In this document: piece by piece, positions 56,145-62,603 of the stretch
How positions within the stretch are numbered: the first letter of the stretch is position 1
How the letters are laid out: each line of letters opens with the position of its first letter
Source of the DNA: a virus
Taxonomy: Duplodnaviria; Caudoviricetes
Strand: one strand, 5' to 3'
DNA: 64,000 nt
Virus record (IMG/VR): IMGVR_UViG_3300010885_031309
Notes under the pieces: generated by a model
Told to the model about the DNA's origin: nothing
Seen by the model: only the letters and a program-made list of their open reading frames with translations
The model's database searches: none
Program-made: the position numbers and the translations under genes

Positions 56145-56234
56145 TGGCGGATAGTGAGGGATTCGAACCCCCGAGGATATCGCTACCCTAACTGCTTAGT
56201 AGGCAGCCGCCATCGTCCACTCGGCCAACTATCC
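56145..56234 (-). tRNA. tRNA-Ser with anticodon ACT (ACU), CCA encoded
   Basis: GGATAGT/ACTATCC acceptor, G73, GCTGC-CTACTAA-GCAGT anticodon arm, long variable arm, TTCGAAT T-loop. Confidence 0.85.
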
Positions 56235-56312: not shown

Positions 56313-56634
56313 TGGTGCCCGGAGCCGGACTCGAACCGGCACGCCTTTTACGGCGAGGGATTTTAAGCGTGTTGTCTCAAAGTTTCCTAAGAGCACGGAC
56401 TATCTCTTTACCTTCAACATTACTTGTTAAGGTAGTGGGCGTTCATGCTGGTTATTAAGAGGGCTTTACCTCTCCAGTAGTCTCTACACCTTCAAGGAAT
56501 GTATTCCTTGCTTGGCTCGCGATTGCCATTTTACAGGCTCTCCCGAGTTAACCCACAGTTTACTCAAACATTTCTGTCTGAGGGGGACGGGCTTTCTGGT
56601 CCTCCCTTGTGTCTACCTATTTCACCATCCGGGC
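56313..56634 (-). tRNA. tRNA-Leu(TAA) interrupted by a group I intron (exons 56603-56634 and 56313-56367)
   Basis: GCCCGGA/TCCGGGC acceptor, A73-CCA, AGGGA/TCCCT anticodon stem, CTTAAAA loop, long variable arm. Confidence 0.88.
56368..56602 (-). mobile_element. Group I intron (235 nt) at tRNA position 31/32
   Basis: P2 CAGACA-GAAA-TGTTTG, P3 GTGGGT/GCCCAC, P7 GACTA/TAGTC, P7.1, P8, P9, P9.0 GTG/CAC followed by the omega G. Confidence 0.88.
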
Positions 56635-56637
56635 AAT

Positions 56638-57288
56638 TTAATTTTTAAAACTCTTTCCGTGTTTCCTTGTTTCATTATACTCAATCACATATTTTTTCCA
56701 TAGCATAGTCAATCTAGGCTGTGAAGTTTTTATGGATTTAGCAAACGAAGTCACAGATTTGCAATCTGATTTAAGAAAAGTTTCATATAATTGATATGCC
56801 AATTTTCTTGATTCTTCATTTCTATCTGTTAAATAGTCTTCTCTTGATCTTAAATTTTCTTTATCAAAATTTATAACTCTACCTAACTCCCATCCTTCTT
56901 CAACTTTGAAATTTTTTGGGACTCTTTTTGACAGTCTCAACTTTTTATTGTGAATCCAAAAAGAGCCATATTGAGAATTATTTTCTCCTGATTGAGCAAA
57001 AGACATTGCTTCAGATAATTTTCTGCGTAGCCAGCCATATAATTTGTTGGATGGTCTGTCTGGAATCATCATTGCGGCTGCCTTTACCAAGGCAAAATTT
57101 TTTGGATACATTTTGACTAATAGTTGATGAGCAACATAATGTTCTTCAGGTGTTAATGGTGCCAAATTAGAAGGATCATCAGATCCACCCAAACATTTGG
57201 GAACAATATGATGATACTCAACATAATCACTTAATGATCTTGATTTAGCCTTTTCAATCAAAAGATTGTAGTGTTTTACATAATTCAT
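56638..57288 (-). CDS. Free-standing HNH homing endonuclease
   Basis: YVEYHHIVPKCLGGSDDPSNLAPLTPEEHYVAHQLL; GENNSQYGSFWIHN. Confidence 0.88.
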   Translation of the reverse strand: MNYVKHYNLLIEKAKSRSLSDYVEYHHIVPKCLGGSDDPSNLAPLTPEEHYVAHQLLVKMYPKNFALVKAAAMMIPDRPSNKLYGWLRRKLSEAMSFAQSGENNSQYGSFWIHNKKLRLSKRVPKNFKVEEGWELGRVINFDKENLRSREDYLTDRNEESRKLAYQLYETFLKSDCKSVTSFAKSIKTSQPRLTMLWKKYVIEYNETRKHGKSFKN

Positions 57289-57344
57289 AATTGTAATAAT
57301 AAAGTTATAACTTTATTTATCACATTTATGAGTTTTTAAATTTT

Positions 57345-57632
57345 TGGTAGGCCCCCTGGGGATCGAACCCAGACTCTATCGATTATGCTTACCACTATAG
57401 TTTTCACTACCAGATTACCCTGTTTGTGGTCTGGACTATGCCTTCACCATCGCTTTCGCATTAGGTGGGTGATTATAGTCTCTACACGTTCCCTTGCGGG
57501 CTTCGCTCGGCGTTGGCATCAGCATTACCTGTTAAGCGTTCACCGAATTTACACCTTACTACTATACCGTTTCCAGTATAGCGACCCATTATTACTTAAG
57601 TCGATTGCATTTACCAATTATGCTAGAGGCCC
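57345..57632 (-). tRNA. tRNA-Ile2(CAT) interrupted by a group I intron (exons 57599-57632 and 57345-57387)
   Basis: GGGCCTC/GGGGCCT acceptor, ATCGA-CT^CATAA-TCGAT; C4-G69/C5-G68 as in E. coli Ile2; lacks fMet C1:A72 and 3 GC pairs; adjacent to tilS. Confidence 0.82.
57388..57598 (-). mobile_element. Group I intron (211 nt) at tRNA position 33/34
   Basis: Canonical P1 with U33-G wobble (CGACT/GGTCG), P10 CAT/ATG, P7 GACTA/TAGTC, terminal G. Confidence 0.9.
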
Positions 57633-57690
57633 ATTTATTTCTTAAAGAGCGTTTGCTGACTAACTATTTGTTTTATCAGCGTATGAATAC

Positions 57691-57719
57691 ATTGTATTCT
57701 TATCTTACTTATCTGTCAA
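57691..57719 (-). promoter_or_regulatory. sigma70 promoter driving the tRNA cluster
   Basis: TTGACA-17-TACAAT-GTATTCA. Confidence 0.75.
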
Positions 57720-58328
57720 GTCATGTTCTTCCATTTTTTGTCTAGCTTCTAACTTTTTACGCAGCATAGTATGAATACCAGGATTTACTCTAAGAATACC
57801 AGGCATAAGTTGATGCCTAATATAATTGCGAGTATACTCAATATCATTATTACTAGTATCCTCAATCCACTCAACATTTTTGCGCCGCGCCCAATCTTCT
57901 AGATCATATTTTCTATTTAGAAGTAGTGGTCTAATCACATTAGCACGACTGTAGGGCATTAAACTACTAGTGCCGTGTAAGCTACTCCACACCCAAGTTT
58001 CAGCAACATCGTCTAAGTGATGTGCTGTCGCTACGGTTTCAAAGTTACTAAAAAACTTGTATCGCTCATTGCGCCAATGTTCCTCCGAACTAAGATTTTT
58101 TGGCTTGTTGGCATCAATCACATACACATGAACGGGCATCTTGTATTGTTTACACACTGTGCTAGTTACAAACTTGTAGGCTCGTTCACTATTCTCAGTT
58201 CTGTGATGCACGAATGCCACGCTTACATCATGGTTTTTACGCAAGAAGTCAAACAACACCATGCTATCTACACCGCCGCTTAGTGCGACGGTGATTTTTC
58301 GCGGCACAGTTTCTAACAGCTTAATCAC
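57705..58328 (-). CDS. tilS: tRNA(Ile)-lysidine synthetase, catalytic domain only
   Basis: VALSGGVDSM PP-loop, RNERY, TAHHLDDVAET, IRPLL, WIEDTSN...YTRNYIR. Confidence 0.9.
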   Translation of the reverse strand: MIKLLETVPRKITVALSGGVDSMVLFDFLRKNHDVSVAFVHHRTENSERAYKFVTSTVCKQYKMPVHVYVIDANKPKNLSSEEHWRNERYKFFSNFETVATAHHLDDVAETWVWSSLHGTSSLMPYSRANVIRPLLLNRKYDLEDWARRKNVEWIEDTSNNDIEYTRNYIRHQLMPGILRVNPGIHTMLRKKLEARQKMEEHDLTDK

Positions 58329-58445
58329 TTAACGAACATGTAGTGAAAGAACAAGAATGCGATTACGCCTACGACAGTAATGTGTCCACAATTTTGCCAG
58401 AAGGAAAAATCCTTACTGTAGAACCAATTAGCAATTTTCTTCATT

Positions 58446-58859
58446 TTACTTCTCCAGAATGTAGGGTTGATCCCACTTGCCGATATTGACATCAACGTAC
58501 CAACCCACCGAAAAGTAGTCAGTTTGAATGTCCGAGTTGTCATAGTTGCCGTAGTTCATCAGAGGGATAACTTCGGACAAGAACTTCAGAGCCACACCGC
58601 TGTAATGATTCTTGTAGTGATAGACATTTACATTATCATACTTGTTCTTGTTGGGAGTGAAGCCACGAGACACTTGATAGTGATCGTTGCCGCACACCTC
58701 GTTGGCATTGCCAATGAAGTCAATGACACCACTCTTGATGTTCAGGCACAGAGTGCTATGATTACGCACAGACAAGGTAGCCTTGACGCCATACTTCTTG
58801 CACACAGCCTTGATATGAGGTGCCAGAGTCTTTTTGAGGTCTTGAGATACAAAAGCCAT
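58446..58859 (-). CDS. Conserved phage hypothetical protein
   Basis: GGAG RBS; KYGVKATLSVRNHS...SDIQTDYF.VGWY. Confidence 0.65.
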   Translation of the reverse strand: MAFVSQDLKKTLAPHIKAVCKKYGVKATLSVRNHSTLCLNIKSGVIDFIGNANEVCGNDHYQVSRGFTPNKNKYDNVNVYHYKNHYSGVALKFLSEVIPLMNYGNYDNSDIQTDYFSVGWYVDVNIGKWDQPYILEK

Positions 58860-62566: not shown

Positions 62567-62603
62567 TATAAATAAGTATAGCATAAAACAAAGTTTATGT
62601 CAA
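62567..62603. promoter_or_regulatory. Back-to-back promoters: late TATAAATA (+, 62567-62574) and early TTGACA-17-TATACT (-, 62575-62603)
   Basis: Direct motif reading. Confidence 0.65.

Follow-up and report, generated by a model that had tools for sequence, protein, structure and literature searches.

A mini-tilS gene directly upstream of an intron-split tRNA(CAU) gene in phage DNA: a probable AUA-decoding pair with an exchanged tRNA allele

The viral record IMGVR_UViG_3300010885_031309 of IMG/VR was analysed as one stretch of 64,000 nucleotides (nt), referred to here as the window, in which a short gene for the lysidine-forming enzyme TilS is directly followed by a tRNA gene with the anticodon CAU that is split by a group I intron. 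A phage DNA ligase, the tRNA cluster and a structural protein whose match is to PA5oct only identify the window as DNA of a phage distantly related to PA5oct, a Pseudomonas jumbo phage. The sequencing runs containing this stretch come from freshwater metagenomes, and a megablast search of the locus against 50,697 phage records gave zero matches. We interpret the locus as a likely AUA-decoding pair of the phage, in which a reduced TilS (mini-TilS) is encoded directly upstream of a tRNA-Ile2(CAU) whose foreign, intron-bearing allele stands in place of the resident one. The tilS gene, a promoter, the split tRNA(CAU), an HNH gene, tRNA-Leu(UAA) and tRNA-Ser(ACU) follow each other in this order, all on the minus strand. 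Features of the pair itself are the following.

57705..58328, minus strand: tilS, 207 amino acids (aa); TIGR02432 and Pfam PF01171 matches, PP-loop S17-G-G-V-D-S22.
57691..57719, minus strand: sigma-70-type promoter TTGACA-17-TACAAT followed by GTATTCA; 11/12 matches.
57599..57632, minus strand: exon 1 of tRNA(CAU), tRNA positions 1-33, 34 nt, ending ...AUCGACU; pairs with the intron guide.
57388..57598, minus strand: group I intron without an open reading frame (ORF), 211 nt, UAAG...GGUAAG; Rfam Intron_gpI match, covariation.
57345..57387, minus strand: exon 2 of tRNA(CAU), C34 to the encoded CCA, 43 nt, CAUAAUCGAU...CCUACCA; ligated junction present in other contigs.

Only one combination of borders is compatible with both group I rules and a 7-base anticodon loop, namely ...AUCGA-CU joined to CAUAA-UCGAU... 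In this combination the end of exon 1 (CGACU) pairs in P1 with the guide GGUCG, placing U33 opposite a G, and the last intron base at position 57388 is the omega-G. The predicted ligated junction, ...AATCGACT|CATAATCGAT..., gives a 77-nt cloverleaf with the loop CUCAUAA and an encoded CCA. The same junction (GCAATCGACTCATAATCGATAG) is present uninterrupted in the tRNA(CAU) genes of 19 IMG/VR viral contigs, the closest of which, L056, has its acceptor and T arms in common with the window tRNA. The intron 3′ end joined to CATAATC was identified in 35 IMG/VR viral contigs; exon 1 could be located in 29 of them, where it also ends at 33/34, and the introns of these 29 are mostly 185-251 nt long, with one of 490 nt.

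The intron core is Azoarcus-like (IC3), with P1, P2, P3-P8, P4-P6, P7 (GACUAU/AUAGUC) and a P9 with GAAA hairpin, and its core strings nearly match the Aol6.Ile2.5Ug row of the seed alignment of Williams. Pairing of GACU with the guide is present in 11 of 11 relatives with a CAU intron. RNAalifold on 12 distinct relatives, window included, recovers P4, P5, P6, P7 and the P9 GAAA hairpin; 13 base pairs with compensatory changes are seen in P4, P5, P6 and the P9 hairpin, and P3 is preserved through eight different complementary helix sequences, which indicates that the intron structure is under selection. A homologous intron in a tRNA-Lys gene of the next relative, G001, aligns with the window intron at both ends. 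Among related introns the scores against Rfam RF00028 are 68 bits (L043), 65.7 (L036), 53.4 (L044) and 49.7 (L038). As judged from borders and conserved structure, the intron is a bona fide member of the IC3-like group of tRNA introns and would be expected to self-splice. In L038 (3380-3840) a mini-tilS gene is preceded, at ~60 nt, by the 3′ domain of the intron together with a CAU exon 2, and the guide GGGUGG fits CCACU but not the stem required by exon 2. A 5′ exon matching both the guide and the anticodon stem was sought in L038 and not found, and this tRNA locus is possibly a chimera or a decayed gene.

The acceptor stem of the tRNA consists of G1.U72, G2-C71, G3-C70, C4-G69 and C5-G68 with A73 as discriminator base; the D stem contains C11-G24, and the anticodon arm reads AUCGA-CUCAUAA-UCGAU. 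Marks of initiator tRNAs are absent from it: there is neither a 1x72 mismatch (C1xA72) nor A11-U24, nor three G-C pairs (GGG/CCC) in the anticodon stem. According to Silva et al. 2006 (PMC1635315), G3 or C70 indicates tRNA-Ile(CAT), C4-G69 and C5-G68 are frequent in this species, and A11-T24 marks fMet. E. coli TilS reads positions 4:69 and 5:68 and the Burkholderia enzyme needs G3:C70 (PMC11947777), so the phage tRNA has both sets of TilS determinants, the E. coli type and the Burkholderia type, in its acceptor stem. For comparison, the E. coli genes ileX, metT and metV were retrieved by annotation. C4-G69, C5-G68 and CGA-CUCAUAA-UCG are common to ileX and the phage tRNA, whereas metT has U4-A69 and A5-U68 instead.

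A second line of evidence comes from related phages, in which 40 distinct CAU tRNAs fall into initiator-like, Met-like (CATCC/GGATG or CTTCC/GGAAG arms) and ATCGA- or CGCGA-arm classes, the last mostly with G3-C70. All three classes co-occur in the contigs L043, L056, L057 and G001; therefore, the ATCGA/CGCGA-arm class is Ile2 by elimination. On these sequence grounds the window tRNA is very probably of the Ile2 type. Many phage tRNA(CAU) genes of this type (L043, L051, L052, L055, L134, L152 and the window) begin their acceptor stem with a G1.U72 wobble. Unusually long tRNA-Ile(UAU) of 92-94 nt are present at L043:4675-4852, L056:3732-3909, L036:988-1079 and L039:1547-1640; in L043 and L056 they lie directly 5′ of the Ile2-type tRNA(CAU), so that two putative AUA decoders adjoin.

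With the model TIGR02432 'lysidine_TilS_N', whose cut-off is 93.6, the tilS product reaches 130.3 bits, and its match to the PP-loop family of Pfam (PF01171) is at 5.9e-37; with the full-length TilS model NF007942, for which the cut-off is 606, it reaches only 97 bits. A profile built from 23 members of the mini-TilS family and searched against PDB matches only three solved TilS proteins, in each case in the N-domain only (1WY5, residues 25-228 of 317; 1NI5, 13-200 of 433; 3A2K, 20-223 of 464), and identity to the catalytic N-domains of type I and type II TilS is 28-30%. The AlphaFold2 model of the phage protein has a predicted local distance difference test (pLDDT) score of 93.9 and its best PDB matches are all TilS, with template modelling (TM) scores of 0.75-0.83 normalised to the query and 0.36-0.56 normalised to the target; the next best match is TtuA (0.72). 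In this model the protein ends after the N-domain with a single long basic helix (residues 185-206). Family searches detected no C-terminal tRNA-binding domain (CTD1 or CTD2) in the 207-aa protein and none supplied by the neighbouring ORFs. By sequence and model, the phage protein is the TilS catalytic domain alone and stands outside types I and II.

Such short proteins are abundant. The mini-TilS family comprises 1439 proteins at E <= 1e-10, nearly all of the 120 best listed being 196-227 aa long, and mini-tilS genes occur in more than 593 IMG/VR stretches. The family alignment has 44 invariant columns, including the PP-loop SGGxDS. Comparison with the strain L178 (199/208 positions identical) gives a ratio of non-synonymous to synonymous polymorphism (pN/pS) of 0.2 for tilS, and the gene is therefore taken to be under purifying selection. 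The GTG start of tilS overlaps the TGA stop of an upstream 72-aa ORF (shared letters GTGA); this hydrophobic ORF lies at 58325-58543 (minus strand), just 5′ of tilS. A 137-aa protein of unassigned function (phrog_10415) is encoded upstream of tilS at 58446-58859 (minus strand), and the order of the 137-aa gene followed by tilS is also kept in the close strains L178 and L179.

The sequence-only reading of this DNA had placed the intron exactly between U33 and C34, taken the tRNA for Ile2 and not fMet, and described TilS as a catalytic domain of 207 aa; the P1 pair of U33 with G, the omega-G and the 19 uninterrupted junctions, the pairs G3-C70, C4-G69 and C5-G68 with the CGA/UCG stem, and the alignments confined to the N-domain bear out these three claims. 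It had further likened the tRNA to E. coli Ile2, which holds for the diagnostic pairs and the anticodon stem and does not extend to the molecule as a whole, since overall identity is no higher to ileX than to metT.

An early promoter over the 3′ end of tilS had also been proposed. The consensus site does overlap the last codons of tilS; it is the best site of the region, leaves a leader of ~50 nt to the tRNA, and is identical in L178 and L179. The window contains 20 sigma-70-like sites with at least 11/12 matches, against 3.1 expected in shuffles, mostly co-oriented with the genes, and in many of them, including the one over the tilS 3′ end, the -10 hexamer is followed by GTATTCA. The site fits a promoter class of the phage's own that would be used by the host polymerase, and its early timing is putative. 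Repeated members of the family have the form TTGACAATAAAT-N-TATACT-GTATTCA, for example at 582, 1745 and 10160 (plus strand) and at 62603, 61080, 60806, 58922, 43465 and 42774 (minus strand). On the demand side, counts over 88 crude ORFs from the window put ATA at 27.5% of the codons for Ile and at 19 in every 1000 codons overall, figures that describe the phage side only. The tilS gene itself has 0 ATA among 9 Ile codons where 2.5 are expected (P ~0.055, non-significant).

Downstream of the tRNA(CAU) the transcription unit continues with the remaining features.

56638..57288, minus strand: free-standing HNH homing-endonuclease gene, 216 aa, between tRNA(CAU) and tRNA-Leu; phrog_655.
56640..57629, minus strand: 990-bp cassette of the intron-bearing tRNA(CAU) allele and the HNH gene; comparison with close strains.
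56313..56634, minus strand: tRNA-Leu(UAA), the following gene in the transcription unit of tRNA(CAU), itself split by a second group I intron; Rfam 53.5 bits (gathering score 50), ARAGORN.
56145..56234, minus strand: tRNA-Ser(ACU), last tRNA of the small cluster; tRNA scan.

Close strains allowed us to follow the history of the site. L178 and L179, whose TilS falls into the same 90% cluster as that of the window, have tilS DNA that is 96% identical and an identical promoter and leader, and carry there a different, intron-less 77-nt tRNA(CAU), GGGAGTT...CACGA-CTCATAA-TCGTG...CCCACCA. Four bases after it follow the tRNA-Leu with its intron (99% identical) and the tRNA-Ser(ACU). In a DNA contig of run X4, 74 letters unlike those of the window connect position 56639 with 57630. 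The site has no HNH gene in L178, L179 or the X4 contig. The alleles of L178 and L179 together with the X4 contig therefore indicate that the 990-bp cassette replaced a resident allele in the window. The 74 bp replaced are the rest of a different intron-less 77-nt tRNA(CAU), and homology resumes at ...ATGGG on one side of the cassette and at AAATTGCCCGG on the other. In G001 the resident allele has its homologue in the CAU tRNA #25, which is Ile2-type by elimination. A variant with the intron and without the HNH gene also exists: in a contig of run X13 the intron is followed by 77 letters and then by the tRNA-Leu.

The HNH protein matches phrog_655 'homing endonuclease' at 1.5e-47, scores 20.3 bits with Pfam HNH (cut-off 21.4), and has annotated homing-endonuclease relatives in 1060 phage records. 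In G001 an intron interrupts the tRNA-Lys(UUU) gene (L033:4790-5004, minus strand) at 34/35; its 3′ half is nearly identical to that of the window CAU intron, and its P1 (ACUU/GAGU) is re-targeted. This family of introns thus moves between tRNA genes and re-targets its guide. Judged from the sequences, mobile DNA that came in together with the HNH gene accounts better for the intron, and what is new here is the recent replacement of an allele by an intron/HNH cassette, with an intron-less tRNA(CAU) behind the same promoter in close strains. Strains that are nearly identical and differ in the cassette offer a natural before/after pair for the spread of an intron and an endonuclease in tRNA genes. 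In L072 (2716-3579, plus strand) a Cys-rich ORF of 287 aa with a weak DUF7487 match lies on the opposite strand between an intron-bearing tRNA(CAU) and a mini-tilS gene; it is possibly another nuclease-type mobile gene.

If the pair functions as we propose, the tRNA-Ile2 would be transcribed from the early-type sigma-70 promoter of the phage, and the intron would then remove itself from the pre-tRNA, guanosine attacking after U33 (the U.G pair of P1) and the omega-G at 57388 defining the 3′ border, while the anticodon stem holds the exons together. The phage TilS would convert C34 of the 77-nt tRNA to lysidine; the host enzyme might also do so because the tRNA carries both sets of acceptor-stem marks. 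The isoleucyl-tRNA synthetase of the host would finally charge the tRNA, which would read AUA.

Whether the two genes form a module was addressed with a survey of the best 80 mini-tilS loci in IMG/VR with 2.5-kb flanks. Where any tRNA is near a mini-tilS gene, the nearest one is CAU in ~8 separate lineages and Ser(ACU) in one. The CAU-adjacent lineages are L097-101 (at 16 or 701 nt), L134/138 (17 nt), L152/L042/L055 (<80 nt), L072 and L038 (both intron-bearing) and the lineage of the window. With 2-3 CAU genes among ~25 phage tRNAs, such recurrence would be improbable by chance, by a rough estimate rather than a formal test. Thus the pairing is recurrent and probably functional, and its distribution among the loci marks it as facultative and evolutionarily labile. 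The module had been called self-contained in the sequence-only reading; the recurrence supports a link between the two genes, but self-containment does not agree with the many loci where the tRNA is missing. A tRNA-Ser with the anticodon ACU (A34) is conserved in several related phages (L095, L096, L058 and L178).

Several observations weigh against the explanation as an AUA-decoding pair and have to be considered with the alternatives. On the side of the pairing, 70 of the 80 loci have no detectable tRNA within 2.5 kb of mini-tilS, and a search for the motif CTCATAA from 160 nt 5′ to 200 nt 3′ of the 80 genes, aimed at CAU loops of tRNAs that ARAGORN misses, yielded just 3. In G001 (TilS 67% identical) and in L096 it is tRNA-Ser(ACU) that directly follows tilS, the CAU tRNAs of G001 lying intron-less in the main cluster 12 kb away. 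On the side of tRNA identity, overall similarity is non-discriminating (57/80 to ileX, 56/81 to metT), and the Ile2 assignment draws on the determinant positions and, through related phages, on elimination, the other CAU tRNAs of this phage lying outside the window. The tRNA could accordingly be read as an elongator tRNA-Met(CAU), with TilS acting on another tRNA encoded elsewhere or on that of the host. The anticodon CAU, shared by Met and Ile2, does not discriminate, and phage tRNAs do break the bacterial rules, some with the ATCGA arm having U3-A70 or C3-G70. We nevertheless consider the Met assignment improbable, given that G3-C70, C4-G69 and C5-G68 are Ile marks as well as TilS determinants, that a distinct Met-like class stands beside this arm type in the same contigs, and that the two different alleles found behind tilS both retain the CGA/UCG stem and G3-C70.

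As for the intron, the Rfam Intron_gpI (RF00028) match (57608..57407, 36.5 bits, E 1.1e-6) stays below the gathering score of 50. P10 (CAU/AUG) has only 3 bp and is not conserved among relatives, and was not used as evidence. The spliced junction does not occur in contigs of X13, the sole RNA-library run, which covers 8% of words with DNA-like variants of relatives and is uninformative on splicing or expression. These points could suggest a dead gene, with an intron that no longer splices and a strain that has lost its tilS-linked tRNA-Ile2; the z-score of the intron's minimum free energy is just -1.9, and L038 shows a related locus whose intron and 3′ exon have no recognisable matching 5′ exon. 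We regard a dead gene as quite unlikely, since all core elements are intact and the helices covary across relatives that include the window, the exons give a perfect cloverleaf with encoded CCA, P1 fits its own exon, and the identical design recurs in the 35 viral contigs. Still less credible, to the point of being negligible, is the only automatic call for the gene. ARAGORN run without the intron option missed the tRNA(CAU) altogether and, with introns allowed, returned the same gene borders as a tRNA-Leu(UAA) with the intron after position 37 (CUUAA|...|AA). That call was rejected because it breaks both group I rules: with A as the last base of the 5′ exon and U as that of the intron, there would be neither a U.G pair nor an omega-G. 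The gene moreover has no long variable arm, which Leu identity needs, and it is the CAU reading that yields the junction seen uninterrupted in the 19 contigs.

An alternative of nearly even probability, though somewhat short of it, concerns the meaning of the arrangement and is compatible with our explanation while competing with the idea of a gate. It holds that intron and HNH gene are purely selfish, that cleavage of a tRNA(CAU) gene without intron by the free-standing endonuclease drove gene conversion ('collaborative homing'), and that adjacency to tilS is incidental and meaningless for AUA decoding or timing. In its favour are the intron-less allele and the missing HNH gene in strains with 96% identical tilS, the lack of an ORF in the intron next to an endonuclease of a common phage family, and the same intron 3′ domain in the tRNA-Lys of G001. 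The intron also splits CGACT|CATAATCG, a string common to both alleles and at least 19 other phage tRNA genes, and hence a plausible cleavage site. Against it, relatives of the HNH gene lie near intron-bearing tRNA(CAU) genes in just 2 of 35 other loci, at 1-3 kb and non-adjacent; the X13 variant has the intron and no HNH gene; and the entire tRNA gene was exchanged, not the intron with short flanks alone. Collaborative homing is suggested by the arrangement and the presence/absence polymorphism, with the cleavage itself putative.

The AUA-decoding pair had further been described as gated by splicing. Exon 2 begins with C34. Before ligation TilS would therefore meet no normal anticodon loop, and splicing is in that respect a logical prerequisite for modification. 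Control is a different matter, and no control feature was found at the locus. Group I introns of this type in tRNAs are generally constitutive self-splicers. As the sister strains with the same order of tilS, promoter and tRNA(CAU) lack the intron, and as the intron came with mobile DNA, a regulatory gate is unsupported; such a gate would matter if real, but nothing supports it. A bolder proposal, which we consider doubtful, is that the N-domain-only TilS represents a third architectural class choosing its tRNA by the anticodon stem-loop alone (CGA-CUCAUAA-UCG), and that the HNH enzyme cuts that same DNA string in the intron-less tRNA-Ile2 of competing phages, the intron at 33/34 serving as an immunity element. 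If true, AUA decoding would be both a function supplied by phages and a target of homing warfare between them.

Two further sets of RNA features were noted. The tRNA-Leu(UAA) at 56313-56634 (minus strand) has its 235-nt group I intron after A31, so that the 5′ exon ends in A, and its P1 region (AAGGGAGGAC/GUCCCCCU) has no U; across G001, L178 and L179 the conservation of this split gene is 95-99%, and two helices show compensatory changes. Viral contigs that also bear the intron family contain a GOLLD RNA (Rfam 175.8 bits) and a permuted transfer-messenger RNA (L039:2524-2979 and L036:1-193).

Among TilS enzymes, the closest described case is that of PA5oct and MIJ3 (gp263; Imam et al. 2019, PMC6892783), ~203 aa long (PA5oct copy 203 aa), N-domain only and 43% identical, in a phage with three CAU tRNAs; there, tilS lies ~6 kb from the tRNA cluster and the tRNAs are intron-less. 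Phage TilS has thus been on record for MIJ3 and PA5oct since 2019, with the missing domains undiscussed (PMC6892783). The type II enzyme of Aquifex aeolicus (1WY5/2E21/2E89) and the type I enzymes of E. coli (1NI5) and G. kaustophilus (3A2K) have the same SGGxDS PP-loop and N-domain fold as the phage protein. All characterised TilS have at least one tRNA-binding C-terminal appendix, CTD1 in type II and CTD1 with CTD2 in type I (PMC11947777), which serve anticodon-stem and acceptor-stem recognition, whereas the phage TilS has neither. How enzymes without CTD2 reject tRNA-Met is an open question of the field (PMC11947777), for which an abundant, conserved N-domain-only TilS with its apparent cognate tRNA adjoining would be a minimal system.

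For the intron, the nearest counterpart is that of the Azoarcus sp. BH72 pre-tRNA-Ile(CAU) (IC3, 'Ile2.5Ug', Williams 2020), which resides in the same tRNA species, is likewise small (~200 nt) and ORF-less, and has nearly the same core strings (AAAUUCGG-GAA, CAACGCCGAGC, GUAGAGACUA, CACC...UGGUG and AAGGCAUAGUCCAG). It lies in a bacterial chromosome and at 36/37, after the anticodon, whereas the phage intron lies at 33/34 with a re-targeted P1 guide; an additional hairpin in P9 and the invariant pairing ACCAC/GUGGU distinguish it further. The cyanobacterial tRNA-fMet intron ('fMet.2Ug') with I-Ssp6803I has the same U33/C34 insertion and an endonuclease linked to the anticodon region of a tRNA(CAU); there, the tRNA is an initiator and the endonuclease gene lies inside the intron, in contrast to the Ile2-type elongator and the free-standing downstream HNH gene of the phage. 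The positions assigned in the sequence-only reading to the fMet introns (33/34) and to the Azoarcus Ile2 intron (36/37) agree with Williams 2020, who lists the classical bacterial types Leu.3Ug, Arg.5Ug, fMet.2Ug and Ile2.5Ug plus 17 more. By this nomenclature the window intron is, from its sequence, a phage Ile2.2Ug. As a type, Ile2 introns at 33/34 are already on record, since Williams' seed alignment contains a bacterial 'Ile2.2Ug': Gba28.Ile2.2Ug (bioRxiv 10.1101/2020.01.27.920355) shares tRNA type, insertion site, U-1 and omega-G with the phage intron. It is bacterial and appears only in a table and alignment of the preprint, differs in P1 and the peripheral helices, and has no reported link to tilS.

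An ORF-less intron beside a free-standing endonuclease gene, with presence/absence polymorphism as in the window, is also seen for F-CphI and the psbA intron of cyanophage S-PM2. SegB of T4 is a free-standing homing endonuclease in the T4 tRNA region. Compared with F-CphI and SegB, the target here would be a tRNA gene, the cleavage is putative and the association is weak in other loci. Hausner et al. 2014 stated that all phage group I introns seen until then were in protein-coding genes, although phages have many tRNA genes (PMC3984707), and our literature search found no later paper on phage tRNA introns. Against that statement, 35 viral contigs have tRNA(CAU) genes interrupted by an intron of this one design, which has relatives in isolated phages as well. 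In Agrobacterium phage Atu_ph07 (L180:451-812; MF403008.1 ~112890-113251), a 278-nt group I intron sharing this 3′ domain interrupts a tRNA-Leu(UAA) at 34/35; the tRNA gene is unannotated, and part of it is covered by a GenBank 'hypothetical protein'. The 'tRNA-Arg' (CCU) of Microcoleus phage My-WqHQDG, annotated with a length of 286 nt, includes an intron of 213 nt.

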